From a bacterium (GTDB lineage Bacteria > Bacillota_I > Bacilli_A > RFN20 > CAG-826): a DNA stretch of 64,000 bases. The stretch covers positions 1,064 to 65,063 of the forward strand of contig CAVFGR010000015.1 in NCBI GenBank assembly GCA_963622135.1, written 5' to 3'. Below, piece by piece: positions 5,507 to 56,181 of this stretch; positions within the stretch are counted from its first letter, which is position 1, and the number at the start of each line of letters is the position of its first letter. The position numbers were made by a program, and so were the translations under genes. The notes below the pieces were generated by a model, which saw only the letters and a program-made list of their open reading frames with translations, was not told the DNA's origin and did no database searches.

Positions 5507-6487
5507 ATGGGTCTCATATCATTTATCAAAAGCAAGTTCGGTGGCAAAAAAGACGCCAAAGCCTCGAAGTATGACCGTTCTCTTACGAAGTCTCGCTCAG
5601 CTTTCGCTGATAAGTTAAACAAATTGACCGAACGTTATAGCAAGGTCAACGAAGAATACTTCGAAGAACTAGAGGAAATTCTCATCGAAGCCGATGTCGG
5701 GGTTAAGCTTTCTTTGTCTTTGATAGACAACCTTTTATCCAAATCCGAAGAAGAAAACATCACCGACCCCAAGGCCATTAACGAAGCCTTGGTCGATATG
5801 ATGTTCGTTTCCTATATTGAAGGCGGCGACTCCGTCATCAATGAAATCTCCTTCAAAGAAGGCACTCCTACCGTTTTATTGGTCGTCGGCGTCAATGGAG
5901 TCGGGAAAACAACCACCATCGCCAAGTTAGCCAAGCGTTACCAAGATAAAGGCAAGAAAGTGATGCTGGTAGCCGCTGACACCTTCCGTGCCGGAGCGGT
6001 GGAACAGCTTTCCATTTGGGCCGAAAGACTCCATTGCCCAATCGTCGTTGGCAAAGAAAATGGCGATCCTGCTTCCGTCGCATTCGATGGGGCGAGATAC
6101 GCTAAAGAACACAACATCGATTTATGCATTGTAGACACTGCCGGAAGATTGCAAAACAAAGCCAATCTGATGGCGGAATTAGGCAAGATCAAGCGCGTTA
6201 TCGAAAGAGAAATCGAAGGCGCCCCACAGGAGACCTTCTTGGTCATCGATGCGACTACTGGCCAAAATGGCGTCGTTCAAGCCAAAGCCTTCAAAGAAGT
6301 CACTGACTTAACTGGCGTTGTCATCACCAAGATGGACGGCACCGCCAAAGGTGGCATCCTTCTTTCCATCCGTGATGAAATCGGCGTTCCTGTTCGTTTC
6401 ATCGGCTTAGGCGAGAAGATGGATGATTTGGAAGAATTCGACTTAGATCGTTACCTCCACGGCTTACTGATTGGGGGAGAAGAATGA
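5507..6487 (+). CDS. ftsY: signal recognition particle receptor FtsY
   Basis: SRP GTPase motifs [20 protein letters not shown]. Confidence 0.9.
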
Positions 6488-6780
6488 AAATCGAAGATAG
6501 AAACAATCTGAACATCCTCCTTGATCGATATGGAAGTTTGCTAACTTCCTCCCAACTGGAAATCATGACCGATTATTGCGCTTATGACTTATCGTTAAGC
6601 GAAATAGCCGAGTCCCGCTCCATTTCCAGAGCAGCGGTGGAAGATGCCATCAAGAAAGCCACCAAAAAATTGGTGAATTACGAAGAAAACATCAAGTTGG
6701 AAGACTTGAAAAAGAGATTGAGCAAAGCCTTAAAAGATAAGGACTTAGATAAATTGGAGGAAGAGATCAATGGCATTTGA
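6484..6780 (+). CDS. ylxM: YlxM/UPF0122 putative DNA-binding protein
   Basis: 98 aa ORF lying between ftsY and ffh, the conserved ylxM position. Confidence 0.75.
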   Translation: MKIEDRNNLNILLDRYGSLLTSSQLEIMTDYCAYDLSLSEIAESRSISRAAVEDAIKKATKKLVNYEENIKLEDLKKRLSKALKDKDLDKLEEEINGI

Positions 6781-34336: not shown

Positions 34337-35265
34337 TTCTTACCTTGTTAGCTAGAAAAGAAATGAAAAAGACTTTGGATCATAGATGGGATGGCAACCC
34401 TAACCTCCCATATTACAATCCAAAAGACCTCTCGTTGGAAGAGGAGCCTTTTTCTTTTATGGACAACGGTCATAGGATTGATGGCTCTAGATATTGCATA
34501 AAAGATATGAAGCCAAAGGCTTTGGTTTGCTTTTTCCACGGGATCGGTGCTGGAAGAAACGCTTATATGAAAGAAATCTCTTTGCTTTGCAAAGAAGGCT
34601 ATTTGGTTTATGCCTATGACAATCTTGGCTGCGCATATTCGGAAGGTATCGGAATTGGTTCCCTTGGCCGTCCTTATGAGACCCAAAGGAAGTTTTTTGA
34701 ATGGCTCGACAAAGATGAGAGATCCCAAGGTTTGAAAAGATACGCGATGGGGCATTCTTGGGGCGGATATGGGGCGATGATAGCCCTTAAGACCGAATAC
34801 AAAATTGAGAAAAGCGTTTCTCTGGCTGGTTTTCTAAGGCCAAGCACGATTATTTTCAAAAGGGCGAAGGGCCATCTCAAAAGAGCAGGCCTTTTGTCTA
34901 TTCGCATAGCCAATCGCCTTCTCGGCGGGAAAAACTCCGATATCGACGCCGTAGATATCGTTCGTCAAAGCGGGGGAAAACTCCTTTATATCGTTGGGGA
35001 TAAAGACCCTCTCGTTCCGATGTCGTTTAACGGTGAAGCATTGAAAGAGGAATTTGATGGATCTCCTCGCTTCTCTTATATGGTCATCCATGGGTCCGGT
35101 CATCAGGTTCATTACACCCAACAAGCGGAGAAATATATCCTTGAGTTGACCGAAAAGGGTTTAACTTCTATCAATTCTCCGGTTGGTTTGCATATGGATA
35201 TAGATAGGGCTACGGAGATGAATATGGACGTTTTTAAGGCCATATTCGACTTTTTAAAGGACTAA
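34333..35265 (+). CDS. alpha/beta-hydrolase fold protein
   Basis: GHSWGG nucleophile elbow. ATGA overlap with the GH3 stop. Confidence 0.7.
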   Translation: MILTLLARKEMKKTLDHRWDGNPNLPYYNPKDLSLEEEPFSFMDNGHRIDGSRYCIKDMKPKALVCFFHGIGAGRNAYMKEISLLCKEGYLVYAYDNLGCAYSEGIGIGSLGRPYETQRKFFEWLDKDERSQGLKRYAMGHSWGGYGAMIALKTEYKIEKSVSLAGFLRPSTIIFKRAKGHLKRAGLLSIRIANRLLGGKNSDIDAVDIVRQSGGKLLYIVGDKDPLVPMSFNGEALKEEFDGSPRFSYMVIHGSGHQVHYTQQAEKYILELTEKGLTSINSPVGLHMDIDRATEMNMDVFKAIFDFLKD

Positions 35266-41529: not shown

Positions 41530-41560
41530 AGAGGAGATAGCCACTCCTCTTTTCTTTTTC
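41530..41560 (+). terminator. terminator after the feo operon
   Basis: AGAGGAG-atagccact-CTCCTCT hairpin followed by TTTTCTTTTTC. Confidence 0.65.
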
Positions 41561-41700
41561 TTTGTGCCGATGGAATCACACACTTAATGAAATCAATAAG
41601 CCGGCTTTCAAATGTAAAAAACGATATGGTTGCTCTTTGTTATATTTATTGTGATACAATAATTCATTCCGTATGCCTTTTTAGGCAACAAGGAGAATTT

Positions 41701-44121
41701 ATGAGAAAAATTAGTAAATTAACAATTCTGACATTAGGGGCGATCGCTTCTGCGTGTTTGGCCTCTTGCGGGCCTGATGCCAGCGATTCCTCTGATCATA
41801 GCAGCGTTCAGCAAACGCTTACCAGCATCAAAATCGTCTCCGGCTCCATCAAGACCAGCTTCAGCCAAGGCGCAACCCCGAATTATAACAATCTCGCCAT
41901 CAACCTTCTCGACCAAGACGAGAAGAAGATGGATACCTTAAAATGGGTTGATAACAAGGACAAGATCACTTTCACGGAAATCGATACTTCCGAGTTGGCG
42001 ACGGATAAGGTCTTCACCGTTACCTATAACGATGGTCAAAACGAATTCACCGACACTTTGAAATACAATGTCGTTGAGGCCTACACTCTTTCTTCCTGGG
42101 CCGCCAATCCGAATTATTCCTATACGACCGGATATCAGGCCAACAACAAGATCTCTACCGACGAAGATAACTTGGAGAAGGGATTCATGAAGACCGCCAC
42201 CTTCTATGTTGGCAACATGAACTCCGTCAATTTGCTTCCAGAATTAAATGGTTTGAACAAAGAGACCTATGAGGTTACTGAACTTACCACCATTCCAACC
42301 GGCGCGACTGTTAAATTGGTTTCCGAAGGCAAGGATATGGTCGTTGACTCTTATATTGAAAACGCCGATTCCTTCATCAAAGATGGCCAATTGAAATTCA
42401 AAGATGGTGTCACCGGCTCTTTCGCTATCACCCTCAGCTATTCAGGCTTGCAGGATATCGTTTATAACGTCGAAGTCGTCGATGCTTATAACGTCAGCAA
42501 AGCGACCGATTTGTACGCTTTCTACACTAACAACACCAACGATTCTTCTATCTTCACTCCAGTCCATGAATTCAAGAAAGAATTAGGATTGCCTGATGCC
42601 GATAACATTGTTATCCAAAACGACATCACCATCGGCAAGAACGACATCCCTTCCGCCTTCATCTGGCAAGAAAATTGCGACGAAGTCGTCAAAGGAAGCT
42701 TGAAAGACTGGATCCGTCTTTATGAGCATCAATTCGATGACGCCAATGAAACCGCCACTGTCTATGGCAACCTCCATAAGATTTCCTTCAACACCGATGA
42801 AGACGACGAGAATATGTTCCCGTATGTCATAACCGACTCACAGGAAGGTATCGCCCAAAGCGAATCCAAGCCAATCTCTTGTCACGCTTCTTTGTTCTAT
42901 GGCACTTATGGCGCCAATCAAGATCCGTTCAATTGCCAGATTATCTTCAAAGATCTTCAGGCTTCCGGCAATAATGGCGTCGATGATACCGCCACGACAG
43001 CCAAAAAAGTTGGTCCGATGTTCTTGAAGTCCGAAGTTAACTCCAAATTTGACAACGTTTTGGTTAACAGTTTCTATATGGCTGCCATGGCTGACGGTCC
43101 TTATTCTTGGTATGAGAACGGCGTTAAGAAGTATGGCAAGCAAATCGATGGTGTCTTCATTGATCCAAAAATCGAAATTGATTCCTGTCGTTTCAATGAC
43201 TCCGCCAACGCTGCCCTCTATTTCTTCGGTCAGTCCAAAGGCGATATCAAGAACTCCGATATCACCAAAGCCGGTGGACCATTGATCTTCACCAACCCAC
43301 AAATTGAGCCGTTGCCAGATGATGTCATCTCCGCGTTAAGCTACGCCCCGACATTCTCCACTGAAGTCAATATCGATGAAAACAGCTTCCTTTCCAACTA
43401 TACCGCTGGCAAAGGCGGATGGTTCGATGCTTATAGTGCCAGCGCTATTGCCGGAACCTTACAATCCATGGATGGACTTTTCACCCCTTATGGCATGTCC
43501 TTCTTAAGAACGAAGAACGATGTTAAGAAATTCAATCTTATCTTAGTTAATCTTCCTATTTCTGGAGAAGAAGCCCTTGCGTTGCCATCTTTGGATGAAG
43601 GCTGCACCAATGTCACCATTAAGAAAGGCAACAACGTTGTTTACAGCACCCTTGATGGTTATCAAGAAGTTATGACTGCTTATGCCGCTCTCGCGGCCGC
43701 CACTCAATCTGCTGCTTCGGCTGAGGAATTAGCCACCCTCTATCAAGCTTATGCCGATGCTATCTCCAGCAGTTTCTATGGCAATAACTTAGCCTACGCT
43801 AACATTCAGAACGAAATGGTCTTTGCGGCCACTAACGGCGAAGGCAAACATGAATTTGGCATCGTCAATGTTGATCAAAGCAGTGGACAATACTATCTCT
43901 GCTCCAGCGACTACGCCATCAAAGCCGGAATGGCTGCCGCTAGCATCCCTGTCACCGTTCCAAGCAGCTATCAGCCAGGCGAAACTATGAAGAGCGCTGG
44001 ATTCTTATCCGCCACCATCAACGGAAACATCGTTTATGGCTCTTCCCAGCTTACTACCCCGACCGCCTATAACGGCGCCAACAACTACGGCGTCATCTTA
44101 GGCGACTATCACGCTATCTAA
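41701..44121 (+). CDS. large surface lipoprotein (807 aa), function unknown
   Basis: Signal peptide with lipobox LASC (MRKISKLTILTLGAIASACLASCG). AAGGAGAA RBS. Asn/Asp/Gly-rich repeats. The longest ORF (41587) was trimmed. Confidence 0.7.
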   Translation: MRKISKLTILTLGAIASACLASCGPDASDSSDHSSVQQTLTSIKIVSGSIKTSFSQGATPNYNNLAINLLDQDEKKMDTLKWVDNKDKITFTEIDTSELATDKVFTVTYNDGQNEFTDTLKYNVVEAYTLSSWAANPNYSYTTGYQANNKISTDEDNLEKGFMKTATFYVGNMNSVNLLPELNGLNKETYEVTELTTIPTGATVKLVSEGKDMVVDSYIENADSFIKDGQLKFKDGVTGSFAITLSYSGLQDIVYNVEVVDAYNVSKATDLYAFYTNNTNDSSIFTPVHEFKKELGLPDADNIVIQNDITIGKNDIPSAFIWQENCDEVVKGSLKDWIRLYEHQFDDANETATVYGNLHKISFNTDEDDENMFPYVITDSQEGIAQSESKPISCHASLFYGTYGANQDPFNCQIIFKDLQASGNNGVDDTATTAKKVGPMFLKSEVNSKFDNVLVNSFYMAAMADGPYSWYENGVKKYGKQIDGVFIDPKIEIDSCRFNDSANAALYFFGQSKGDIKNSDITKAGGPLIFTNPQIEPLPDDVISALSYAPTFSTEVNIDENSFLSNYTAGKGGWFDAYSASAIAGTLQSMDGLFTPYGMSFLRTKNDVKKFNLILVNLPISGEEALALPSLDEGCTNVTIKKGNNVVYSTLDGYQEVMTAYAALAAATQSAASAEELATLYQAYADAISSSFYGNNLAYANIQNEMVFAATNGEGKHEFGIVNVDQSSGQYYLCSSDYAIKAGMAAASIPVTVPSSYQPGETMKSAGFLSATINGNIVYGSSQLTTPTAYNGANNYGVILGDYHAI

Positions 44122-44127
44122 TAATTT

Positions 44128-46590
44128 ATGACAAATAAGGCCCTGAAAAAGAACATTTGCCTCTTTGCGGGCCTTTTTGTCGTTTTAGGGCTATCGTTCG
44201 GCTTATCTTTCATCAATAAGAGCAACTACGCTCTTAATTTCTTGCCGTTTGTCTTGCTCTTATTGGTCTTAATCGGCGGCTTCATCTTATTGAAACGCTA
44301 CCTTAAAGACCATAAAGCGAAGTCTTTTAAATCCAAATGGCTCACCAAGATGAGTGCTAGATTAGCCACCAAAGAAGGCCGTTATAAGTACCTGCTTTGT
44401 CTCCTTTCCATCATTCTTGGAATCTTGTTTTTCGCCCGTTTCTATTTCTTCAAAGGCACTTACGATTATGTAGATGCTTACGGTGGGGCGGGCTCTTTCA
44501 CTTACTACGACATTTTCCATCTCGAAAGTCAGCTATTGATGCTTCGTTTGGATCCATTGATGCTAGCTAAATACGAGTCGGTTATCGGCACGTTGGCTAA
44601 TGATTTATGGACGGCGTTGGTCGTATTGAGCTTGGTCAGCGCTTTCTATTTGGAAGAATCTTCCTTAAGCGTCCGTCGTTATATCGGCGTTCCTGGCGCC
44701 ATCTTGATCACCCTAGCCTTCCCAATCGTCCTTAAGGGCATCGTTGGGTCCGATGCGGTTTCTTATCGTTCCATCCTTATGGGCTTGGAATTGGCTATCA
44801 TTGATTTCTATTTCTTCCATAGCCTTTTTGAAGAAGGAAAGTTCAAGCTCAATAAGAAAGAGATAAGGAAAATCATCGCCATTTTGATTCCGATGTTATT
44901 GACGATGGCGACCGCTTATTCCCCATCCTTATTATTCGGAAGGACGGTTAATTTGGGCGGTTACACCTTAACCAATCCAAAAGGACCGAAGAATTTATCC
45001 CATCGTATCTATCTATATTTGGCTTTCATCTTGCCAATTTTGTACTTTGCCTTGCTATATCCTATGAGCAAAGAAGAAAGAAGAGGCGCTTTGCTGCAGA
45101 TATCATTAGGTACTTTGATTGGCTATGCCTCTATTCATCGTTATGACATCTGGACGGATTTGTCCTCTTGGCCATTACATCTTTGCAACACCGCCATGTA
45201 CACGATGCCGATAACTTTGTTATTTGCTAGTTACGGTCTTTATTACTTCACCTTCTTCGTTAACGTGTTAGGTGCTTTCTTAGCGTTATTGATGCCTAAT
45301 TTCTCGGAAACCCTATATGTTTTCGATCCGAAAATCGTGGCTTTCTTCATCAACCATTTGAACGCCTTCTTCATGCCGGTGCTAATCGTCATGTGCGGAG
45401 TATATAAGCGACCGAAGATGCGTTACTTCTTATATTCCCAGATAGGGTTCTTTGTGTATTTCGCTTTCGTTATGGCGGTCAACACTATCCTTACCGCCCA
45501 TGGCGTCTCTAGCGACTTCTTCTTCATCAATTCCTCATTCGTCGCCGATAAGTTGGGCGAATGGGCCAAAAACCTATTTAAGACAACGATTTCTTGGGAA
45601 AGCAAAGGATATACCTATGTCTTGCATTTGGCTTACGACATATCCTATTACCTTGTCTATGTCGTCTTAGCCTTCGGCATGTGGTTCTTATACGAATTGT
45701 TATTCCGAGTGACCGACGAATTGGCTGCCATTCGCTTAGCCAAAGAAAAATCAATCAGCCGTCATAAGGCTTACTTAGCCATTCACCAAGGAGGAAAAAT
45801 CATGAGCGAGAAAATTGAATTAACCATCTCTCATCTTTCCAAACGCTATCACGGGAACGATTTCTTTACCGTCAAAGATTTCTCTCTGGACTTAGAGGGC
45901 GGAAAGATCTACGGATTCCTTGGCAAGAATGGCGCAGGCAAATCTACCATCATCAAATCCATCGTTGGTATCCATGGCTTTGAGGGTGGCGAGATTGACG
46001 TCTGCGGGCATAATGTCATCGAAGAGCCATTGGAAGCTAAAAAAGAAATCGGCTTCGTTCCTGATAACTATGCCTTATATGAGAACTTGACCGGCAGACA
46101 GTACATCAGCTATATTGCTGACCTTTATCATGTTTCCAAAGAGCAAAAAGAAGAAACTGAAGAGAATCTCGTTGCCCGTTTGGAATTGGTGGACCGTTAC
46201 GACAAGCCGATGAAATCTTATAGCCACGGCATGAAGCAAAAAATCACCATCATCGCCGCTCTTATTCATAAGCCGAAAATCTGGATTTTGGATGAGCCTA
46301 TGACTGGTTTAGATCCAAATTCCATCTATCAGATCAAAGAATGCATGAGAGAACACGCTAAAGAAGGCAACATCGTCTTCTTCTCCTCCCATATCATCGA
46401 TGTCGTTAAGAACCTTTGCGACGAAGTTGTCATCATTAAGAAAGGTGACCTCATCAGGCGCATTGATTTAGACGCTGAGCCAGAAGAAAGGGAGAACCTC
46501 GAAGAGACCTTCCTTCGTTTAACCAGCGACAGTGAGGAAGAATCAAACATTTTGATTGAAGAAGAAAAGAAGGAGAAAGGAATCGCGTGA
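44128..46590 (+). CDS. polytopic membrane protein (about 14 TM, YwaF/TMEM164-like C-terminal part with PLHLCN) fused in frame to an ABC-transporter ATP-binding domain
   Basis: Continuous 820-aa ORF. The ATPase domain starts at residue 559 (Walker A GKNGAGKST, signature YSHGMKQK, Walker B ILDEP). Internal AAGGAGG plus ATG at 45788-45804. Confidence 0.7.
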   Translation: MTNKALKKNICLFAGLFVVLGLSFGLSFINKSNYALNFLPFVLLLLVLIGGFILLKRYLKDHKAKSFKSKWLTKMSARLATKEGRYKYLLCLLSIILGILFFARFYFFKGTYDYVDAYGGAGSFTYYDIFHLESQLLMLRLDPLMLAKYESVIGTLANDLWTALVVLSLVSAFYLEESSLSVRRYIGVPGAILITLAFPIVLKGIVGSDAVSYRSILMGLELAIIDFYFFHSLFEEGKFKLNKKEIRKIIAILIPMLLTMATAYSPSLLFGRTVNLGGYTLTNPKGPKNLSHRIYLYLAFILPILYFALLYPMSKEERRGALLQISLGTLIGYASIHRYDIWTDLSSWPLHLCNTAMYTMPITLLFASYGLYYFTFFVNVLGAFLALLMPNFSETLYVFDPKIVAFFINHLNAFFMPVLIVMCGVYKRPKMRYFLYSQIGFFVYFAFVMAVNTILTAHGVSSDFFFINSSFVADKLGEWAKNLFKTTISWESKGYTYVLHLAYDISYYLVYVVLAFGMWFLYELLFRVTDELAAIRLAKEKSISRHKAYLAIHQGGKIMSEKIELTISHLSKRYHGNDFFTVKDFSLDLEGGKIYGFLGKNGAGKSTIIKSIVGIHGFEGGEIDVCGHNVIEEPLEAKKEIGFVPDNYALYENLTGRQYISYIADLYHVSKEQKEETEENLVARLELVDRYDKPMKSYSHGMKQKITIIAALIHKPKIWILDEPMTGLDPNSIYQIKECMREHAKEGNIVFFSSHIIDVVKNLCDEVVIIKKGDLIRRIDLDAEPEERENLEETFLRLTSDSEEESNILIEEEKKEKGIA

Positions 46591-48326
46591 AAAAGGTAGC
46601 GAACGAAAAAACATCTGCTTTCCGACGCTTTTTCGCGGTTGATTGGCGTGCCTTTTGGGTGTTGGTGAAAATGCTTTTCTCCAACTCCATGTCCATCAAC
46701 TGGAAGAAAGATAAAAAGAAAGCCATCATCAAGATCGTTTTGAGCTTGGTCGCTTTCGCAGCGGTTGCTGCCTTATCTTACGTTTTCTTCTATTTCTGTA
46801 TTCGCTTTAGCATTTTCTCCTTGCTAGCCTTCGTTCCGATGAGCGTTCCATCTATCGTGGTGACCGTCTTATTGATCATCTCGTTTATTGCTTCCTTATC
46901 AAAAGTTACGGAAGAACTTTATTTCGGAGAAGATAACAAGGTTTTGCTCACTTTGCCAACGAACGGGAATACCTTGTTCTTGTCCCGATTGGCGGTACGC
47001 TACATCACCTCATATCGCCGTTCCTTGTTATTAGAAATCCCATTCTTGATTGGTTATTTTGCTGTTAGCAGATATCCGGTTTATATGTATTTCGTCTTGT
47101 TTGTTATCTGGGCGTTGATCGACTTAGTGATGTTATTGCTGGCTTCCCTCATAAGCGTCCCTGTTTATTACATCAAAAAGGCAATCCGCACCCACACTTG
47201 GGCTAGCATCATCGCTAAATCCATCATCTTTGCCATCATCTTGGCTTTATGTATCACCGTCATTGTCCTTGTACCTGATAATATCGATATTTTCTCGAAC
47301 TGGGGCACATACTTTGCCAAGATTCAGAACGGTCTAAATTACTACAAAAACAACCTTGGGTTCTTCTATCAAATTTCCATGGTCTATTTGGGCAATTTCA
47401 CTGGATTCAGTTTCTATTTCATGTCTCGTTCGGCTATTGCTGGTCTATGGACTTTATTGGCCATAATTGGCCTTATCGTCGTTCTATTCGTGGCATCGTT
47501 AGCTTTGGCTAGCCCGCTATATTTGAAGTTAGCCAGCGGCACTGGAGAACTTCAGGCCAAGGGCAGGAAGAATGCCAAAGAAAAAGAAAACAAGTCTTTG
47601 CCTCCGTTCATTTCTCAAATCAAGAAAGATGCCATTCTGTTCTTCAAGAATTCAGATATTTCTTCTTCCTATCTCGGAACCTTTACAGCTTTGCCTTTGT
47701 TGATCGCTTTGTTGGCCAAAATCTTCAACGCGATGGACTTAAATAGCCGTGGGGACGCTTTGGTGCAGGTCGTGAGCTTACTAATTGCTCTGCTTATCGG
47801 CTTAAGCACCAATTCGGTAATTGCCCGCATCTATTCCGAGGAAGCTGGAGCCTTCAAATTGGCGAGAACCTATCCACTTAAAGAGCATTACGCCGTCGGA
47901 AGTAAGCTCTTTATTCCTGGCGTATTTGGCTGTTTGAGTCTTGTGGCGTGCACTATCTCTTTATGTTACATCCGTCCGGAGATGCTCGAAGGAACTACCT
48001 TCATGGGCGTTGCTATGATCTTCGTTTATGTCGGACATTTGCTATACAGCGCCGGACTCGACTTCACCAATCCAAGTTCTACGTTCGGCGGTGGTTCTTT
48101 CTTAGCTAGAAACGAAAATCGCTCGGTTATCATGGCTTTTATCACTTCGGCCTTCTTTGCGGCTTTGTACTACTATTATTTCCAAGACCACATATTGTGG
48201 CTCTCGTCCTTGCAAGCGACCGCCGGATTCAAGGTATTCATCTTAGGTGTCATCTATCTAGCTTTTAACATCATTCTCTATATTCGCAAAATCAAATACA
48301 TTTACAAAACGGGGGAGGTCTTATGA
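46587..48326 (+). CDS. ABC-2-type exporter permease-like polytopic membrane protein
   Basis: 579 aa with about 12 TM. GTG start overlapping the upstream stop (GTGA). AAGGAGAAAGG RBS. Confidence 0.65.
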   Translation: MKKVANEKTSAFRRFFAVDWRAFWVLVKMLFSNSMSINWKKDKKKAIIKIVLSLVAFAAVAALSYVFFYFCIRFSIFSLLAFVPMSVPSIVVTVLLIISFIASLSKVTEELYFGEDNKVLLTLPTNGNTLFLSRLAVRYITSYRRSLLLEIPFLIGYFAVSRYPVYMYFVLFVIWALIDLVMLLLASLISVPVYYIKKAIRTHTWASIIAKSIIFAIILALCITVIVLVPDNIDIFSNWGTYFAKIQNGLNYYKNNLGFFYQISMVYLGNFTGFSFYFMSRSAIAGLWTLLAIIGLIVVLFVASLALASPLYLKLASGTGELQAKGRKNAKEKENKSLPPFISQIKKDAILFFKNSDISSSYLGTFTALPLLIALLAKIFNAMDLNSRGDALVQVVSLLIALLIGLSTNSVIARIYSEEAGAFKLARTYPLKEHYAVGSKLFIPGVFGCLSLVACTISLCYIRPEMLEGTTFMGVAMIFVYVGHLLYSAGLDFTNPSSTFGGGSFLARNENRSVIMAFITSAFFAALYYYYFQDHILWLSSLQATAGFKVFILGVIYLAFNIILYIRKIKYIYKTGEVL

Positions 48327-48838
48327 AAAAAGGTGTTGCCGTCTTAGTTAGCGCGATATGCCTTTTGGCCGTGGTTTTCGTTACGGTCTTCGGCACTCGC
48401 CCACAAGGTATCGTCCCTGTCATTTACATTACCAATCTCACCATCAAGCCAAGTGACAACAGCCGCTACTGGACCACTGATAGCGGTGTGCATCAATGCG
48501 TTATCGAATATGATCCAAATAAGGAAGTCACCGATGGCGAAGATTGCTATATGCCTTATATTTTTGTCACTGACATTCTTCCTGAAAACGCAACGAACAG
48601 AAGCTTTGTTTATACCCTCGCTAAGGAATATGAAAACTACATCACCTTCTCTTCTGGCGACCAAGCTGCTAGACAAGGCGCTTTCCTTATCAAAAAGATC
48701 ACTGACCGTGCAGATCCAATGGTCGTTTCCATCTCCGTTTCCCCGCAAGATGGCGGCAGTGGCAAAGGCGACACTTTAAAGATCGTCATTGTCTACGACA
48801 AGGTCTATGGAAGTTCTTCGACTCCAAGTGGCGATTAG
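48323..48838 (+). CDS. small signal-anchored exported protein
   Basis: N-terminal TM/signal MKKGVAVLVSAICLLAVVFV. GGGGGAGG RBS. ATGA overlap with the upstream gene. Confidence 0.55.
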   Translation: MKKGVAVLVSAICLLAVVFVTVFGTRPQGIVPVIYITNLTIKPSDNSRYWTTDSGVHQCVIEYDPNKEVTDGEDCYMPYIFVTDILPENATNRSFVYTLAKEYENYITFSSGDQAARQGAFLIKKITDRADPMVVSISVSPQDGGSGKGDTLKIVIVYDKVYGSSSTPSGD

Positions 48839-48914
48839 CCCGTTCTTTTATTCAATAATCTAGAATGCTAAAATCTTGACGGATATTTTACTTTGCAAAA
48901 TATCACTATAAACG

Positions 48915-51734
48915 ATGCAATATTTCTACCTAACATTAGTAGCTCTTTCTCCGGTTGTTCTCAGCATCGTTTTCTTTTTGCTTGATAAATACACGAAATT
49001 CAAGAATCTCAAATACATAGTCAAACAAATTATCTACGGCATCGCTTTCGGCGGACTAGCCATAGTTGGCACTGAATGTGGCATTCCTATCTCGGGGGCT
49101 CAAATCAATTGCCGTGACGCTGCCGTATTAACTGCTGGGCTTATGTTTGGTGGGCCAGCCGGCATGATTGCTGGTGTTATCGGTGGCGTTGAACGTTTTG
49201 TTAGCGTTTATTGGGGCGTTTCCTCTTTCACCCAAATCGCTTGCAGCGTCTCTACTATTTTGGCTGGCGCTTACGCTTGGTTAATTCGCAAATTCATGCT
49301 TGAAAACAATCGCCCGGGAATCTTCTTTGGCTTTTGCGCTGCGGTGGTTATGGAAATCTTCCATTTGGCCATGATTTTCTTCACCAACTTCAGCGCTCAA
49401 GCGGAAGCTATGGCGGTGGTTAGGGCCGCAACCCTCCCAATGGTTTTAAGCAATGGATTGTCTGTGGCGGTTTCAACCTTAGTCATGACCTTGCTTAACA
49501 AGGAGAAACTTTTTGCTAAACTTAGAGACACGAAAACATCGAAAATCGTTCAGCAATGGCTTCTTTTGACGGTTGTTATTGGTTTCTTAGCTTCCGGTGT
49601 TTTCGTTTATAGCTTCCAAACCTCATTAGCCAAGAGCGAGGCTAAAGAATCATTGAATTTGGCTATTTCGGATACCGAGGCGGACATCAAAGATAAGTCT
49701 GATGCGAACATCTTATCTATTTGTCATGATGTGGCCTCTGATTTAACAGCGGGTGATGACATCGATCTTATCGCTGATAGACGTGACGTAACTGATATTC
49801 ATGTCGTTAATAGCAAAGGCATCATTATCAAGAGCACTGATCTATCCTTAATTGGTTGGGATATGCATAATTCCGACCAATCGGAAGAATTCCTATGCCT
49901 TTTGGATGGAAAGACCACGTCTTATGTTCAGGCTTATGGACCGATTGGCTCAAATGAAGAAATCTATCGTAAGTTTGCAGGCGTTACCTATGATGATGGC
50001 TTCGTTCAAGTTGGATATGATGGCGAGCGTCTTCAAAGAGATATTGCCGAGCAAGTCAACAACGTAACCAAGAACCGCCATATCGGCAAAGGAGGATGCG
50101 TCCTCGTCCTCGACCAAAATAAGCAAATAGTTTCTGGCCCAGATTCATTTATGAAGGGCGGGCCGCTGGAAAGTGGCAACAGTTCCTTCCCAATTTCCGA
50201 TACTTTCAAAGTTACCGTAAAGGGAACGGAATACTATTGTGTCTATGCCATGTCGGAAGGCTATTACATCGTTTCCTTGTTGCCAATCGAAGAAGCTTTG
50301 GCTGATCGCAACGTTTCGTTATACCTAAGCACCTTCATGGAAGTAATTGTTTTCGCAATTATATTTGCTTTGGTTTACGGCTTAATCGAAAAGACGGTCG
50401 TCAAGCAACTTAAGCATGTCAATAAGACCTTGTACGCCATTTCCAATGGAGACCTTTCATTGGCGGTAGATGTTAGAGGTTCATTGGAAATGTCCTATCT
50501 TTCCAACGACATCAATAGAACCGTTGATTCGATGAAGAAGTTGATTTCCGAAGCCAACCAAAGAATCGACGATGAGTTGGAATTCGCTAAGCAGATTCAA
50601 TCGTCTTCCTTACCGGTTATCACTGAAAAAGTGAGTAAGCGGCAAGAATTCGATATATACGCCTCTATGAAAACCGCCAAAGAAGTCGGTGGGGATTTCT
50701 ATGATTTCTACGGAAATGAAAAGAACTTCAACATTATGATTGCCGATGTCTCGGGCAAAGGCATTCCAGCCGCGATGTTTATGATGCGTGCCAAAGCCGA
50801 CCTTAGGACCTTGACGGAAGCTGACAAGCCTTTAGATGAGGTTTTTACCTCTGCTAACTCCTCTTTGTGCGATCGTAATGATGCCGGAATGTTCGTCACG
50901 GCGTGGCAAGGGAACATCGATTTAGAAACCGGTCTTCTTACCTTCGTCAATGGTGGACATAACCCTCCATTAATCAAAAAAGCCTCAACTGGAAAATTTG
51001 AATACCTTAAGTCTAAAGCCGGCTTTATCTTAGGCGGGATGGAGGGATTCAAATATCGTTCCAATACCCTTCAATTGGAACCTGGGGATGTTCTTTTCCT
51101 TTATACCGACGGTATCACCGAAGCCGTTGATAACGATCTTAAATTGTATGGCGAACAACGTCTGCTTGATTTGCTCAATAAGACCGAGGCTAAGAATATG
51201 AAAGAACTCTGCCTAGAAGTCTCGAAAGATATCGAAGTTTTCTCCAACGGTGCCCAGCAGGCTGACGATATCACTATGCTGGCCTTCGAATATAAAGGGA
51301 TTGTGCCAATTCCAAGCATTCATTTCGATGAAGCTAAGTTAACGGATATTGAGCAAATGACCGAATTCCTTAATGCCGAACTAAACAAATGCCAATGCCT
51401 TAAGAAAGAACGTTATCAGCTCGATGTCGCCCTTGATGAAGTGGTCTCTAACATCATCAATCATGGATATGACGGGAAGCCGGGGCCACTTACGATGTCT
51501 GTCGAATATCGTGAAGACAGGAATGCCATCTATCTCAAATTTATCGATAAGGGCATTCCGTACAACCCGCTTCATAATTCCGATCCAAACCTCGATGTTT
51601 CCTTGGAAGAGAGGAAAGTCGGCGGAGTTGGCATCTATATCGTCAAGAACACGATGGACGATATGAAGTACAAATATGAAGATGGGCAAAATATTTTGAC
51701 TTTGACAAAGCTTCTTAATAAGGAAGGGGAATAA
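48915..51734 (+). CDS. membrane sensor protein: 7-TM + periplasmic sensor + HAMP + PP2C (SpoIIE/RsbU-type) phosphatase + GHKL anti-sigma-type Ser kinase (RsbW-like) domain
   Basis: PP2C motifs GGDFYDF, DVSGKG, TDGITEA, ADDIT. HATPase_c_2 motifs VVSNIINHGY...GGVGIYIV. Confidence 0.85.
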   Translation: MQYFYLTLVALSPVVLSIVFFLLDKYTKFKNLKYIVKQIIYGIAFGGLAIVGTECGIPISGAQINCRDAAVLTAGLMFGGPAGMIAGVIGGVERFVSVYWGVSSFTQIACSVSTILAGAYAWLIRKFMLENNRPGIFFGFCAAVVMEIFHLAMIFFTNFSAQAEAMAVVRAATLPMVLSNGLSVAVSTLVMTLLNKEKLFAKLRDTKTSKIVQQWLLLTVVIGFLASGVFVYSFQTSLAKSEAKESLNLAISDTEADIKDKSDANILSICHDVASDLTAGDDIDLIADRRDVTDIHVVNSKGIIIKSTDLSLIGWDMHNSDQSEEFLCLLDGKTTSYVQAYGPIGSNEEIYRKFAGVTYDDGFVQVGYDGERLQRDIAEQVNNVTKNRHIGKGGCVLVLDQNKQIVSGPDSFMKGGPLESGNSSFPISDTFKVTVKGTEYYCVYAMSEGYYIVSLLPIEEALADRNVSLYLSTFMEVIVFAIIFALVYGLIEKTVVKQLKHVNKTLYAISNGDLSLAVDVRGSLEMSYLSNDINRTVDSMKKLISEANQRIDDELEFAKQIQSSSLPVITEKVSKRQEFDIYASMKTAKEVGGDFYDFYGNEKNFNIMIADVSGKGIPAAMFMMRAKADLRTLTEADKPLDEVFTSANSSLCDRNDAGMFVTAWQGNIDLETGLLTFVNGGHNPPLIKKASTGKFEYLKSKAGFILGGMEGFKYRSNTLQLEPGDVLFLYTDGITEAVDNDLKLYGEQRLLDLLNKTEAKNMKELCLEVSKDIEVFSNGAQQADDITMLAFEYKGIVPIPSIHFDEAKLTDIEQMTEFLNAELNKCQCLKKERYQLDVALDEVVSNIINHGYDGKPGPLTMSVEYREDRNAIYLKFIDKGIPYNPLHNSDPNLDVSLEERKVGGVGIYIVKNTMDDMKYKYEDGQNILTLTKLLNKEGE

Positions 51735-51736
51735 GC

Positions 51737-52918
51737 ATGGACAACATTAGTTACAAATTGGAAAATGGGACTTTAACGGTTTTCGTTTCAGGGAGAATCG
51801 ATTCTTCGAACGCTCAAGAGTTTGATAGCGAATTAGAATTAATCCGCACGAATAATGCACACAATGCATTGGTGCTAGACGCCGAGAATCTTGAATATAC
51901 CTCCAGCGCCGGTTTACGCGCTATCCTACGCGTTTTGAAACTCGAACCGGGTATGAAAATCATCAATGCCTCCAGCGAAGTTTATGACATTTTCGAGATG
52001 ACTGGTTTCACCGAATTGATGACTATTCAAAAGGCTTACCGTCACATTTCGGTGGAAGGAGCTGAACTTATCGGACAAGGTGCGACGGGCAAAGTCTATA
52101 GAACCGCACCTGACACCATCGTTAAAGTCTATTTCGATTCAAATTCCCTTTCTGATATCGAAAGAGAAATCAAAATGGCTAGAAGGGCCTTCGTTTTAGG
52201 CATTCCGACCGCGATTCCGTTTGATATCGTCAAGGTTGGCGATAATTTTGGTTCGGTTTTCGAGATGCTTAACGCCGATTCCTTCGCGAAGTGCGTCATC
52301 AATGATCCCAATAATATTGATAAATATATCGATTTAAGCGTCGATCTTATGAAGAAAATCCATCACGCCGAAGTGAAGCCTGAAGAGATGGCGGACCAAA
52401 AGGCCGTTTTCCGTAAGAGAGTCGACTTTGCTAAAAATTACCTAAGCAAAGAAAGATACGAGAAATTGTCGAAGATGTATGAAGCCATCCCGGAAAGCAA
52501 TCACATGCTTCACGGCGATCTCCATTTCAAAAACATGATGATGCAAAATGGCGAAGTCCTCTTGATCGATATGGACACCCTTTGCCATGGAGACCCAATC
52601 TTTGAATTTGCCAGCATCTATGATGCCTACCTTGGCTTTTCGGAATTTGATCACGAGAACATTCATGATTTCTTAGGCATTACCTATGAGCAGGGCCAAC
52701 ACGTCTGGCAAAAGACGGTTGAGGACTATTTCGAGACTAAAGATGAAAACCGCATCAAAGAAATAACCGAGAAAGTACAAGTTTTAAGCCATCTTCGCCT
52801 CTTCCATCACATCATTACCCATGGGTTGGATACCGATGAAGAACATAAAAAGCAAAGAGACGGCTATCTCCATCTTCTCGAAAAAGCCATCGATGACGTT
52901 GATAACCTAATTCTCTAG
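51737..52918 (+). CDS. STAS (anti-sigma antagonist) domain fused to an APH/protein-kinase-like phosphotransferase domain
   Basis: STAS loop LEYTSSAGLRAIL. Kinase motifs IGQGATGKVYR, VKVY, HGDLHFKNMMM, LIDMD. Confidence 0.8.
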   Translation: MDNISYKLENGTLTVFVSGRIDSSNAQEFDSELELIRTNNAHNALVLDAENLEYTSSAGLRAILRVLKLEPGMKIINASSEVYDIFEMTGFTELMTIQKAYRHISVEGAELIGQGATGKVYRTAPDTIVKVYFDSNSLSDIEREIKMARRAFVLGIPTAIPFDIVKVGDNFGSVFEMLNADSFAKCVINDPNNIDKYIDLSVDLMKKIHHAEVKPEEMADQKAVFRKRVDFAKNYLSKERYEKLSKMYEAIPESNHMLHGDLHFKNMMMQNGEVLLIDMDTLCHGDPIFEFASIYDAYLGFSEFDHENIHDFLGITYEQGQHVWQKTVEDYFETKDENRIKEITEKVQVLSHLRLFHHIITHGLDTDEEHKKQRDGYLHLLEKAIDDVDNLIL

Positions 52919-52927
52919 GAGTTGAAG

Positions 52928-53227
52928 ATGGAAATAACTAAAAATTTAGATAGTGGGAAAGTCATTCTTTCCCTCAAAGGAAGGCTCGATACGGTCACTT
53001 CGCCAGAACTTGATAGAGTCATGAAAGAGACCTTTGAAGAAACCAATGATCTCGTTCTCGATTTAAAGGGACTGGACTATGTTTCATCTTCGGGCTTGCG
53101 TTTGTTTTTGATTGGTTATAAAACCATGTCCGGGAAAGGCGGACGCTTCTCCCTTATAAATGTCAATGAAGTCGTTATGGATGTCCTTGAAATGACGGGC
53201 TTCAACGATCTTCTATCCAACAATTAA
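52928..53227 (+). CDS. stand-alone STAS-domain anti-sigma-factor antagonist (SpoIIAA/RsbV-like)
   Basis: Phosphorylatable loop DYVSSSGLRLFL. TAGGAG RBS. The ORF track starts at an upstream TTG at 52922. Confidence 0.8.
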   Translation: MEITKNLDSGKVILSLKGRLDTVTSPELDRVMKETFEETNDLVLDLKGLDYVSSSGLRLFLIGYKTMSGKGGRFSLINVNEVVMDVLEMTGFNDLLSNN

Positions 53228-53243
53228 AATCTGGAGGTACAAC

Positions 53244-53885
53244 ATGTTGAAATTATTGGCCAGCTCTTCCGATTCAGGAAAAAATGTCGATGTCGGTTTA
53301 ATCGTCGCGATTGTCTTAGGCATCGCTCTTATTGTCACGTTGGTTGTCTTTATTATCTACACCATCAATCTTAAAAAAGGTGTCTCTTTCTTATACACCA
53401 TCGTCGGCAGCGAAGCCGATACGACCATCGATTCGGCCATCGAAAAGAACGAAACGGCCAAAAAAGACATGAAGAAAGGCGTCGTCACCGACTATAACAA
53501 GCAAAGAAAAGAAATCGCTAAGGAATACGATAAAAAGATCAAAGAGATTAACGCTGGCTACGCCAAACAAGTTAAAGAGACCAGAAAGCAGGCCAACGCC
53601 GCCATCAAGGTAGCGAAGGAAGACGAAGATGCCGAAGGACTTACCCAAATCCGCGAGAAATTAGACATCGACGTCCGCAATATCAACGCTTCCAAACGCG
53701 CTGAAGTTGATCCGGTGGTTACCGAAAAGAACGCTAAGTTAAAGGAAATCGAAGACCAATATAAGCCATCGCTTATCACCTATCAGAGGGTTTTGGCGGT
53801 TTCTAGACACACAAAACCTGTCGCAAAAATTTTAAAGAAATGCAAAGAAAAAGAATACGCTTTGCCAGACTACGATAAGCAATAA
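53244..53885 (+). CDS. membrane-anchored coiled-coil protein
   Basis: One TM (LIVAIVLGIALIVTLVVFIIY) followed by a K/E-rich helical region. GGAGGT RBS. Confidence 0.55.
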   Translation: MLKLLASSSDSGKNVDVGLIVAIVLGIALIVTLVVFIIYTINLKKGVSFLYTIVGSEADTTIDSAIEKNETAKKDMKKGVVTDYNKQRKEIAKEYDKKIKEINAGYAKQVKETRKQANAAIKVAKEDEDAEGLTQIREKLDIDVRNINASKRAEVDPVVTEKNAKLKEIEDQYKPSLITYQRVLAVSRHTKPVAKILKKCKEKEYALPDYDKQ

Positions 53886-53895
53886 AAGATTAGGC

Positions 53896-53935
53896 GGTTG
53901 CGGAGCTTAAGCCTTGGCAATCGCTTTTTTTATTT
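53896..53935 (+). terminator. terminator closing the 41.7-53.9 kb cluster
   Basis: GCGGTTGC...GCAATCGC stem followed by TTTTTTT. Confidence 0.55.
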
Positions 53936-54111
53936 TATGGGTGGGAAACTTTTTTATTCGTTGACACTTTTTAAGGCCATCAAAAAAATGTATCCGCTTT
54001 CATTTATGAGGGTTAAAATTATTTTACAATCGAAATAAGCTATTCGGCTTTCTAGGGAGGATTTTTGCCACATAGTTTATTTCCAAAAACTTGCAAATAG
54101 AAAGGAAACAC

Positions 54112-56181
54112 ATGAAAAAATATTGGCAAGAGCACAAAAAGAGCCTGCTCTGGTTGATTATTGGAATCGTCATGATCTTTGTCACCAGCTTTGCTCAATT
54201 TTTGGTGCAAACAGACGGCTGTAGTGTCAAGGTCTCTGATTTAAGAGATGAGACCAATACCGGCACTATCAGCTTGAATTACACGGACGACACCGGCGCC
54301 TCCGCGACCGGCGACTTCGAAATCAAAGGCGAAGTCAAGTCTGGCATCTTATTCGTCCCTAAGGATGCCTCCGCTGAAAACAAGAAGCCTGGCATCGTCC
54401 TCACTCACGGCTATTTGAATAACCGTGAACTCCAGCTTCCTAACGCTATCGAATTGGCAAGAAGAGGCTTTGTCGTCTTGACCGTTGACCGCGAAGGTCA
54501 TGGTAACTACAACAACGACGATGATGCGGGCGCGTTGATGGCCACCAAGGGCTTATATGAATCCGCTAAGTATTTATATAACCTTGATTACGTTGATCAG
54601 AGCATGATCGGTATCTCCGGTCACTCCATGGGTGGTTTCACCACTGCCATGGCCTTGATCACCGATATGAGTCAGCAGACCTTAACCCTCAATCGCAAGA
54701 GCGTTAAAGCTGATGGTTATCACATCATCAAAGCTGGTCTTATGCAAGGTTGGAGCTCCTTCATGGGCGCCGCCCCTGATGTCAGCGTTGGCTTATTGAA
54801 AGCCACTGATGACGAATTCTTCTTCACTTCTAAGGATTTGGAAGGAAATAAGACCATTTCCAGAGAATTCCTTCATAGCACCGGTGCCGCTTCCTTCGTT
54901 AAGATGGACACCACTGGTTTAACCGAAATCAACGTTCAGAACTGCGCTCGTTACGTCAATGGCGTCGTCGTTGACAAGAAGCCTGGCGAAGCCGTTGGCG
55001 AACCGTTCCGTGCTATCTACGAAGCCGATGAAATCCACCCACTCAACCACTGGTCAGTGACCAGCACCAGAAACGTCTTAGACTTCTTCTACGGCGCTTT
55101 CGGTACCCCAAACGGACACAAATACATCGCCGAAGGTCGTCAGACCTGGGTCGTTAAGGAATTATTCTCCTTCGCCGGCATGCTTTCCTTGTTGTCCTTA
55201 ATCGTCCCATGCGTCAGCTTGATGCTCACTATCCCGTTCTTCAAGTCATTGAAGAAAAAACGCATCGCTGCAGTCGCTGCCGATGGCACTATCGCTACCA
55301 GAGAAGTCGAAGTTACGAAAGAAGCCATCGAAGAAGAAAAGAAACCTCTCAAGAAGTGGTATTCTCACTTGTTCTATTGGATCCCAGCCGTTGTTTGCGC
55401 GGTCTTCGCGGGCTTCTCTATCCAGAAGTTCTGCACCGAATGGGCCGATAAGATCTTCCCGAATTCTCAGTTGTTCCCGCAGGATACAACCAACTGGGTC
55501 GCTGTCTGGACTGCCGCTTGCGGTATCTTCGTCTGCATCGTGACCTTGCTCGTCTACATCGTTAAGTACTGCATCAACAAGGGCAGAGTCGCCCATGGCA
55601 AAGAGCCAATTGATGCTGATAACCCATTCGCTACCGCCAAGGTTTCTTCCTTCGGTAACGCCTTAAAGACCATCTTATTGGCCTGCATCGTCGTCTTCTT
55701 ACTCTACTTAGTCGTCTTCATCAACTGGAAAGCCTGGGTTGTTGACTTCCGTCTCTGGACGCTCGTCATCAAGGTCTTCAACGTCTCTAGCATGATGCCA
55801 ACCATCCTCCGCTACTTGCCGTGGTTCGCCGTTTACTACATCCTTTCCGGCATTGCCAACCAGACCTTCAGAGCCAAGAACATCCCAGATTGGGCCACCA
55901 TCGCCATCAACTCGTTCTTCAACGTCGTTGGCTTGGTCTTGGTTATCGCCATCCAGTATGGCACCTTCAAGTCCACTGGCGTCTTATGGCAGGGGAATAT
56001 GGCCTTAGGCTACATCGTCCTCTTCCCGACGATCGGCGTCCTTATCATCGCCGCCATCCTTTCCCGTGTTCTCTACAAGAAGACCGGAAACATTTGGCTT
56101 GGTTCCTTAATCAACGCTCTCTTATTCACCATCATCACAGTTTCCAACACTGCTGCTAGCTGGGGATATGTCTTCGCGTAA
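54112..56181 (+). CDS. alpha/beta-hydrolase (dienelactone hydrolase/S9-like) domain fused to a C-terminal polytopic membrane domain
   Basis: GISGHSMGG nucleophile elbow, N-terminal TM, about 8 C-terminal TM. AAAGGAAA RBS. The ORF track starts at 54091. Confidence 0.7.
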   Translation: MKKYWQEHKKSLLWLIIGIVMIFVTSFAQFLVQTDGCSVKVSDLRDETNTGTISLNYTDDTGASATGDFEIKGEVKSGILFVPKDASAENKKPGIVLTHGYLNNRELQLPNAIELARRGFVVLTVDREGHGNYNNDDDAGALMATKGLYESAKYLYNLDYVDQSMIGISGHSMGGFTTAMALITDMSQQTLTLNRKSVKADGYHIIKAGLMQGWSSFMGAAPDVSVGLLKATDDEFFFTSKDLEGNKTISREFLHSTGAASFVKMDTTGLTEINVQNCARYVNGVVVDKKPGEAVGEPFRAIYEADEIHPLNHWSVTSTRNVLDFFYGAFGTPNGHKYIAEGRQTWVVKELFSFAGMLSLLSLIVPCVSLMLTIPFFKSLKKKRIAAVAADGTIATREVEVTKEAIEEEKKPLKKWYSHLFYWIPAVVCAVFAGFSIQKFCTEWADKIFPNSQLFPQDTTNWVAVWTAACGIFVCIVTLLVYIVKYCINKGRVAHGKEPIDADNPFATAKVSSFGNALKTILLACIVVFLLYLVVFINWKAWVVDFRLWTLVIKVFNVSSMMPTILRYLPWFAVYYILSGIANQTFRAKNIPDWATIAINSFFNVVGLVLVIAIQYGTFKSTGVLWQGNMALGYIVLFPTIGVLIIAAILSRVLYKKTGNIWLGSLINALLFTIITVSNTAASWGYVFA

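Follow-up and report, generated by a model that had tools for sequence, protein, structure and literature searches.

Partner switching is usually taught as a means of freeing a sigma factor. The cluster of four genes described here, P1 to P4, lies at positions 48,915 to 53,885 of a 64,000-nucleotide (nt) stretch of DNA from a member of the Bacillota (contig CAVFGR010000015.1; the whole stretch is hereafter called the window), and it shares with the paradigm switches RsbU/RsbV/RsbW-SigB and SpoIIE/SpoIIAA/SpoIIAB-SigF all three domain families and the phospho-serine loop. Unlike in those systems, no sigma factor gene is present, the kinase and phosphatase are fused in a single membrane-bound protein, and one of the STAS domains is fused to an enzyme. 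With moderate confidence, we read this locus as a sigma-independent phospho-switch of the partner-switching type that has an enzyme as its effector.

Several described systems share one or another of these features. The first-pass annotation of this DNA had taken the presence of PP2C and GHKL domains in one polypeptide to be unusual, but HsbR, CrsR, SypE, and Rv1364c all possess this arrangement (PMC6482189, PMC10120452, PMC9138534). In the HsbR-HsbA system of Pseudomonas aeruginosa and the CrsR-CrsA system of Shewanella oneidensis, a PP2C domain is followed by an RsbW-type GHKL domain in one chain that sets the phosphorylation state of an adjacent single-domain STAS protein, the domain order being that of P1, and both HsbR and CrsR sequester unlinked RpoS (PMC6482189). 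These two proteins have a REC input domain in place of the 5TMR-LYT/extracytoplasmic/HAMP membrane sensor of P1, and their systems, which are found in Proteobacteria rather than in the Bacillota, have RpoS, FlgM/FliA, and the cyclase HsbD as outputs and contain no STAS-enzyme fusion. In SypE-SypA of Vibrio fischeri, a serine kinase and a PP2C phosphatase in one protein likewise control a STAS protein, and the effector is that STAS protein and not a sigma factor (PMC10120452); however, the domain order of SypE is kinase-REC-PP2C, and SypA consists of a STAS domain only. Rv1364c of Mycobacterium tuberculosis carries PAS, PP2C, GHKL, and STAS domains in a single chain in which the protein's own domains phosphorylate and dephosphorylate its STAS domain (PMC9138534). 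In contrast to P1 and P2, it senses through a cytoplasmic domain, joins STAS to the kinase and phosphatase rather than to an output enzyme, and feeds SigF.

Fusions of STAS domains to effectors and outputs other than sigma factors have also been described. The All4160/HenR/Alr3423 system of Anabaena PCC 7120, described as "partner-switching-like" and without a sigma factor, resembles P2 in that a STAS-enzyme fusion is controlled by phosphorylation of the STAS domain via a PP2C-type phosphatase and GHKL-type kinases (PMC13555669, 2026), but the effector is a glycosyltransferase rather than an APH-type kinase, and the kinase and phosphatase are separate and unlinked. In CapK-CapS, the conserved serine phosphorylated by a GHKL anti-sigma-like kinase lies in a STAS domain that is joined to an output domain (PMC13373217, 2026); there the output is a winged helix-turn-helix repressor, no PP2C domain takes part, and the context is an immune operon, whereas PADLOC was negative for P1 to P4. 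SiaABCD of P. aeruginosa comprises the PP2C phosphatase SiaA, the kinase SiaB, the switch protein SiaC, and an enzyme output, the cyclase SiaD (PMC7647112), but SiaC is not part of the enzyme and binds it in trans, and SiaB and SiaA are likewise separate chains. Sigma-independent outputs are thus known from HsbA-HsbD (PMC6482189), SypA (PMC10120452), and SiaABCD (PMC7647112). P2 itself has the fold and catalytic motifs of the APH/choline-kinase family (PF01636), but the APH enzymes described so far have no STAS domain at their N terminus. In the published literature searched, no paper turned up on a STAS-APH kinase or on its connection with PP2C-GHKL receptors, and none on a link between STAS-APH and HD_4 or between a small alarmone hydrolase and a STAS protein. 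The earlier suggestion that no described system is wired in this way therefore has to be narrowed: PP2C-GHKL fusion, sigma-free output, and STAS-effector fusion are already known, and it is the STAS-APH output alone that appears to be undescribed.

The genes and domains of the locus, with lengths and domain borders in amino acids (aa), are as follows:

48915..51734 (+): P1, 939 aa; membrane receptor with 5TMR-LYT, extracytoplasmic domain, HAMP-like linker, PP2C, and GHKL (open reading frame [ORF] call, Pfam, NCBIfam, hydropathy)
49011..49484 (+): P1 aa 33-190, 5TM-5TMR_LYT membrane sensor module (PF07694, E 1e-22)
49617..50330 (+): P1 aa ~235-472, extracytoplasmic domain between two transmembrane (TM) helices at 216-234 and 473-491, possibly Cache-like
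50718..51293 (+): P1 aa 602-793, PPM/PP2C (SpoIIE-family) serine phosphatase (PF07228, E 4.6e-51)
51333..51710 (+): P1 aa 807-932, RsbW/SpoIIAB-type GHKL serine kinase (PF13581, HATPase_c_2, E 2.5e-20)
51737..52918 (+): P2, 393 aa; STAS domain fused to an APH-type kinase, the proposed output enzyme
51905..51907 (+): P2 Ser57 codon, equivalent of SpoIIAA phospho-Ser58 (alignment to 1TH8_B)
52064..52915 (+): P2 aa 110-393, kinase domain of APH/choline-kinase fold (PF01636, 54.4 bits versus a cutoff of 23.2)
52928..53227 (+): P3, 99 aa from the ATG at 52928; free single-domain STAS protein (Pfam, TIGR00377, ribosome-binding site)
53087..53089 (+): P3 Ser54 codon (ATG numbering), middle serine of VSSSGL, equivalent of SpoIIAA Ser58 (alignment to 1TH8_B and 6M36_B)
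53244..53885 (+): P4, 213 aa; single-pass membrane protein with a Lys-rich antiparallel coiled-coil hairpin, a lineage-specific accessory, co-transcribed

ORF calling reproduced the placement of the four genes given by the first-pass annotation, and the intergenic gaps for P1-P2, P2-P3, and P3-P4 are 2, 9, and 16 nt, the second being 9 nt if P3 starts at the ATG at 52928. The earlier assignment of PP2C, GHKL, STAS, and APH domains was supported throughout by Pfam.

P1 combines a membrane sensor with both enzymes of the switch. It had been described as a seven-TM protein with a periplasmic sensor and a HAMP domain, and the topology largely agrees: hydropathy gave six strong TM segments at the N terminus, a weaker one was added by eye, and the bundle is followed by an extracytoplasmic stretch of ~240 aa (aa 235-472) and a single TM helix at 473-491. 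The HAMP assignment fared less well, as aa ~470-560 give weak NCBIfam matches to the TM2/HAMP region of histidine kinases and methyl-accepting chemotaxis proteins, but Pfam HAMP did not reach E 0.01. A dCache_1 match at aa 379-454 is likewise weak (E 0.004, below the Pfam cutoff), and no match to a REC or PAS domain was found in P1 by Pfam or NCBIfam. In the phosphatase, the motifs GGDFYD, DVSGKG, and TDG align with those of Rv1364c (3KE6) and RssB, and also with SiaA. Rv1364c 3KE6 is the best sequence match of this domain in the PDB (E 3e-11); in NCBIfam, the phosphatase region best matches SiaA (E 3.5e-20), at a score far below the equivalog cutoff. The GHKL domain has an N-box (DEvvsNiinHGY), a G1 motif (DkG), and a G2 motif (GGvGiy) that align with SpoIIAB (1TH8/1TIL) and RsbW (6M36).

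P2 and P3 both carry a STAS domain of the type on which such an enzyme pair would be expected to act. Pfam placed STAS at aa 6-99 of P2 (E 5.8e-10) and APH at aa 110-300 (E 1.9e-14), while P3 matches PF01740 (E 1.3e-16) and, above its cutoff, TIGR00377 (E 1.4e-22). The first-pass annotation had seen a phosphorylatable loop in the STAS domain of P2 and a classical free STAS antagonist in P3, and both descriptions hold: Ser57 and Ser54 align with Ser58 of SpoIIAA, the serine at this position is invariant in relatives (49/49 free STAS homologs and 77/77 fused STAS domains), and the motif YxSSAGLR is common to both sets. Among STAS domains, that of P2 most resembles SpoIIAA and RsbV rather than the transporter type.

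The kinase domain of P2 had been called APH or eukaryotic-like. The first of these terms is borne out by Pfam and by fold matches to small-molecule kinases of the APH/choline-kinase type, with ~12-17% identity to the solved members; the second is not, as the same Pfam and fold matches rule out a Hanks-type (eukaryotic-like) Ser/Thr protein kinase. At the family level, P2 best matches the uncharacterized paralog family TIGR02172 (E 8.5e-32), and its score, 110.8 bits against a curated cutoff of 228.2, makes it a relative of that family and not a member. The kinase motifs comprise a Gly-rich loop (G113xG115xxG118), K130, E144, H259-G-D261-x-H-x-x-N266, and D278, which are invariant in alignment A1. 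Across 136 diverse full-length representatives, S57, K130, H259, N266, and D278 are conserved in 100%, D261 in 99%, and E144 in 93%. Judged by these residues, the kinase domain of P2 is catalytically intact, as are the active sites of P1 and the acceptor serines of the STAS domains.

The STAS-APH fusion defines a large family. At least 7946 matches of ~390 aa carry both domains, a few of them named "anti-sigma factor antagonist" by NCBI. Clustered at 50% identity, the family gives 655 clusters at E<=1e-30 and 1550 at E<=1e-10. The family is present in at least 595 species-representative genomes, mostly of gut and rumen Bacillota (Oscillospiraceae, Acutalibacteraceae, Lachnospiraceae, Erysipelotrichaceae, and unclassified Clostridia), and its carriers in the Lachnospiraceae include two in culture, Coprococcus catus VPI-C6-61 (locus L035) and Sporofaciens sp. 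(L059). Two metagenome-assembled genomes labeled Spirochaetia/Spirochaetaceae (L017 and L028) carry the module too. Longer members include single chains in the order GHKL-STAS-APH and, twice, STAS-APH-GHKL, as well as fusions with hydrolase-type domains (HD_4-STAS-APH in protein P0255, HD-CE-STAS-APH, and STAS-APH-PHP), a Na/H-exchanger-STAS-APH protein (P0259), and a STAS-APH protein with a nucleotidyltransferase head. These natural fusions tie the GHKL kinase physically to STAS-APH, and they tie the APH kinase repeatedly to phosphohydrolases.

The neighborhoods of STAS-APH genes show a matching association. The best 80 STAS-APH loci were surveyed by calling ORFs and searching them with the window proteins and with hidden Markov models (HMMs) built from the first matches, and linkage was counted within 5 kb of the STAS-APH gene in the 51 well-flanked loci. 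A GHKL domain is encoded near STAS-APH in 39/51 loci (76%), a free STAS gene is found in 35/51 (69%), an HD_4 gene in 33/51 (65%), and a PP2C domain in 31/51 (61%), with PP2C and GHKL fused in 29/51. When the 713 neighbor ORFs of the 80 loci were clustered de novo, the only large real clusters were STAS, PP2C-GHKL, and an HD_4 protein of ~190 aa. Because the domain E-values are very low and the pattern recurs across ~80 loci in different species, the association of this gene set is far beyond chance. The PP2C-GHKL sensors of the relatives have an N-terminal 5TMR-LYT module as in P1, a clear dCache plus HAMP, or, in L055, no Pfam sensor match, and the input is therefore modular. In L055 and L060, a single PP2C-GHKL gene is flanked by genes for a free STAS protein, a STAS-HAD (Cof-type) phosphatase, and STAS-APH.

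The HD_4 protein resembles the hydrolase part at the N terminus of RelA/SpoT (TIGR00691, E 1e-29) and, read by eye, has an HDxxED motif; it looks like a small alarmone hydrolase. Its gene usually lies between those for PP2C-GHKL and STAS-APH (e.g., L002:7425-7985 and L064:6418-7008), and it persists in loci that have neither GHKL nor PP2C. A local HMM search found no HD_4 homolog in the window, and the nearest relatives of the locus (L003, L004, and L046) are also without one.

Other proteins encoded near STAS-APH in the relatives carry parts of the same machinery. Output fusions include STAS-HAD, MatE-GHKL, and Na/H-exchanger-STAS-APH (L055:3191-4285, L060:3784-4866, L063:5143-6939, and P0259). 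Such fusions suggest that STAS and GHKL domains form a modular network that is free of sigma factors and is connected to enzymes and transporters. In addition, SDF (sodium:dicarboxylate symporter) transporters beside STAS-APH have an N-terminal domain of ~140 aa that is related to the P1-type GHKL domain (hhalign 94.8%, E 5e-8) and lacks the N-box Asn (L005:2885-4615, L007:1950-3551, L032:5358-7004, L037:8493-10160, L040:8507-10174, L045:8505-10172, L052:1148-2767, L069:2815-4470, and L071:924-2567). Through this domain, possibly a pseudo-kinase docking site, STAS proteins might regulate the transporter.

These data bear on how the STAS domain of P2 is to be understood. It could be a ligand-binding or oligomerization module of a metabolic or resistance kinase, with P1 and P3 alone forming the switch and the adjacency of P2 reflecting co-regulation. 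The STAS domains of SulP transporters do bind nucleotides or anions and are not phosphorylated (PMC5613929), an APH fold is what one would expect of an antibiotic or metabolite kinase, and some STAS-APH genes stand in loci without switch genes. Against this are the 100% conservation of Ser57 within a whole YxSSAGLR loop that is shared with free STAS proteins, the closer resemblance of the domain to SpoIIAA and RsbV than to transporter STAS, the existence of GHKL-STAS-APH fusions, and the linkage of GHKL in three-quarters of the loci, and we regard such a role as improbable. A second possibility is that P2 acts on the switch rather than being acted on by it, its APH-like domain serving as a protein or peptide kinase for P3, P1, or P4 in a two-kinase cascade. 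The best structural matches of the domain, however, are small-molecule kinases, its recurrent partners (HD_4, HD-CE, PHP, and HAD) are phosphohydrolases typical of small-molecule or nucleotide chemistry, and P4 is not conserved; a cascade of this kind seems very unlikely.

The output of the switch could also be a sigma factor after all. In agreement with the first-pass annotation, no sigma factor or anti-sigma factor gene was found in the window when 21 ORFs were searched with Pfam and all 54 ORFs were read. The only sigma-like signal is a sub-threshold Sigma70_r4 match in a YlxM/UPF0122 helix-turn-helix (HTH) protein encoded at 6484-6780 (+) between ftsY and ffh, which is not a sigma factor. 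Across the 80 related loci, the sigma-70 family is not among the 25 most frequent Pfam families of the 150 nearest unexplained neighbor genes, and no recurring sigma factor appeared in the de novo clusters of the 713 neighbor ORFs; one HTH/region-4-like ORF in L074 is the sole other sigma-like match. An ordinary partner switch might nonetheless operate on an unlinked target, in which case the GHKL domain of P1 would be the anti-sigma factor, P2 and P3 would be antagonists, and the APH domain would have a side activity or provide a sensory input to the STAS domain. This possibility draws on the match of the P1 GHKL domain to RsbW and SpoIIAB models, on the precedent of HsbR and CrsR, REC-PP2C-GHKL proteins that bind unlinked RpoS (PMC6482189), and on the extent of the inspection, which covered 64 kb of the genome. 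It has to contend with a window that holds no sigma factor and 80 loci in which none recurs among the 150 nearest neighbors, with a GHKL domain that is membrane-tethered in P1 and fused directly to STAS-APH in some other proteins, and with GHKL-like domains that in the relatives are found on transporters and are not paired with sigma factors. It would also leave the strict conservation of the kinase catalytic residues unexplained. We consider an unlinked sigma factor unlikely as the output. An anti-phage defense role was rejected, as PADLOC returned nothing for P1 to P4 and only generic ABC (ATP-binding cassette)-ATPase matches upstream.

The sigma-independent switch with an enzyme effector would then work as follows; we infer the phosphotransfer itself (which protein phosphorylates which), the direction of regulation, the role of P3, and the substrate. 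The sensor part of P1, composed of the 5TMR-LYT bundle, the extracytoplasmic domain, and the HAMP-like linker, would set the balance between the GHKL kinase and the PP2C phosphatase, both of which would act on Ser57 of P2 and Ser54 of P3. The STAS domain of P2 would be the N-terminal regulatory module of the fused APH/choline-kinase-type kinase, and its phosphorylation state, together with docking to the membrane-tethered GHKL domain, would turn the kinase on or off or relocate P2. The output would be phosphorylation by P2 of a substrate, most likely a small molecule, rather than release of a sigma factor. P3 would be a second client: in all likelihood it either buffers the switch or sets its threshold by competing with P2 for the GHKL domain, or it relays the signal to a further partner. 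The first-pass annotation had proposed in outline that the sensor writes and erases a phospho-serine on both STAS domains and that the fused kinase is the output, and this proposal is consistent with the conservation of the serines, the linkage, the GHKL fusions, and the absence of a recurring sigma factor from the surveyed loci.

Several observations weigh against this model. In 7/51 loci, neither GHKL nor PP2C nor free STAS is encoded within 5 kb, and the STAS-APH kinase can therefore exist without a linked switch. The APH fold also takes in a few peptide or protein kinases (LxmK, TvaE, YihE, and FN3K), and a 64-kb window leaves room for a sigma factor or other GHKL-binding target elsewhere in the genome. 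The role given to P3 is inferred only. At the 5' end of the locus, no Shine-Dalgarno sequence is evident ahead of the P1 start codon (cactataaacgATG), and a scan of the 76-nt gap upstream (48839-48914) found no promoter on the + strand.

If the model holds, the chemistry of serine kinase, PP2C phosphatase, and STAS protein is wired here to a small-molecule-type kinase, an arrangement shared by hundreds of Bacillota species of the gut and rumen. It would represent a common post-translational route that leads straight from a membrane receptor to an enzyme and, in relatives, apparently also to phosphatases and transporters, and it would point to a phosphorylated metabolite with its own kinase and hydrolase in abundant bacteria of the human gut. 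The module is compact enough to test, at three proteins with one serine each, and the large family behind P2 is unstudied. A bolder and rather doubtful extension is that the STAS-gated APH kinase acts as "writer" of a signal not yet discovered, a phosphorylated small molecule that may resemble a nucleotide, and that its erasers are the recurring HD_4, HD-CE, PHP, and STAS-HAD phosphohydrolases. Were this true, a membrane receptor would be coupled to a new metabolite or second-messenger cycle widespread in gut Bacillota, and the same network would have further outputs under STAS control in the GHKL-like domains of SDF and MatE transporters.

P4 stands apart from the other three proteins. It matches no Pfam family, and its earlier description as a membrane-anchored coiled-coil protein was confirmed by a single TM helix at 20-38 (hydropathy) followed by two long helices at 57-126 and 130-202, with pLDDT (predicted local distance difference test) values up to 97 in the AlphaFold2 model; a fold search returned only generic antiparallel coiled coils (E>0.02). 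Among the 80 loci, homologs of P4 occur only in L001 and L004, and the genes that follow the STAS gene elsewhere are unrelated. The context survey ruled out conservation of the four-gene unit that the first-pass annotation had described: P4 is confined to the two closest relatives, and most other loci carry HD_4 instead. P4 is a lineage-specific accessory, and the unit consists of three genes plus a lineage-specific fourth. P4 and the four genes upstream of P1 recur together only in L001 (99% identical) and L004 (63%), where the upstream genes are syntenic; this recurrence is simple synteny of close relatives. L004 (CAVBUY010000005.1) is titled Alistipes shahii but is syntenic with the window over >15 kb, encodes a P2 that is 63% identical, and has Bacillota-type genes despite its Bacteroidota label; it is probably a mis-binned contig.

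Within the locus, the ribosome-binding sites of the later genes are strong, and translational coupling of the genes counts, with the terminator after P4, among the evidence for the switch model. That of P2 (AAGGAAGGGG) lies ahead of P2 within the 3' end of P1, P4 is preceded by GGAGG, and AGGAG stands six nt upstream of the ATG of P3 at 52928. The TTG at 52922, the mechanical start of P3 in the ORF list, is an unlikely start and was dropped in favor of this ATG. One further feature marks the end of the cluster:

53892..53937 (+): intrinsic terminator-like hairpin plus U-run directly 3' of P4 (RNA fold -19.2 kcal/mol, z -3.25)

With this hairpin and U-run directly after P4, the 3' end of the unit is clear. 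At the other end, no terminator-like site lies between P1 and the four + strand genes upstream of it (41587-48838), and P1 to P4 may be read through from these genes. The upstream genes are tightly packed and begin after a terminator-like hairpin at 41530-41550; three of their products (844, 579, and 171 aa) have no Pfam or NCBIfam match, and the remaining one (820 aa, second in order) is a TMEM164-like membrane domain fused to an ABC ATPase.

Translations read across the rest of the window show housekeeping Bacillota synteny, including ftsY, ffh, trmD, rplS, topA, rpsB, tsf, pyrH, frr, dxr, rseP, and polC. Genes for alpha/beta hydrolases lie at 54091-56181 (+), directly downstream of the module, and at 34333-35265 (+). 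Alpha/beta hydrolases (Hydrolase_4 and Abhydrolase_1) are also the commonest "other" family near STAS-APH in relatives, at 5/150 neighbors, which is possibly a coincidence.

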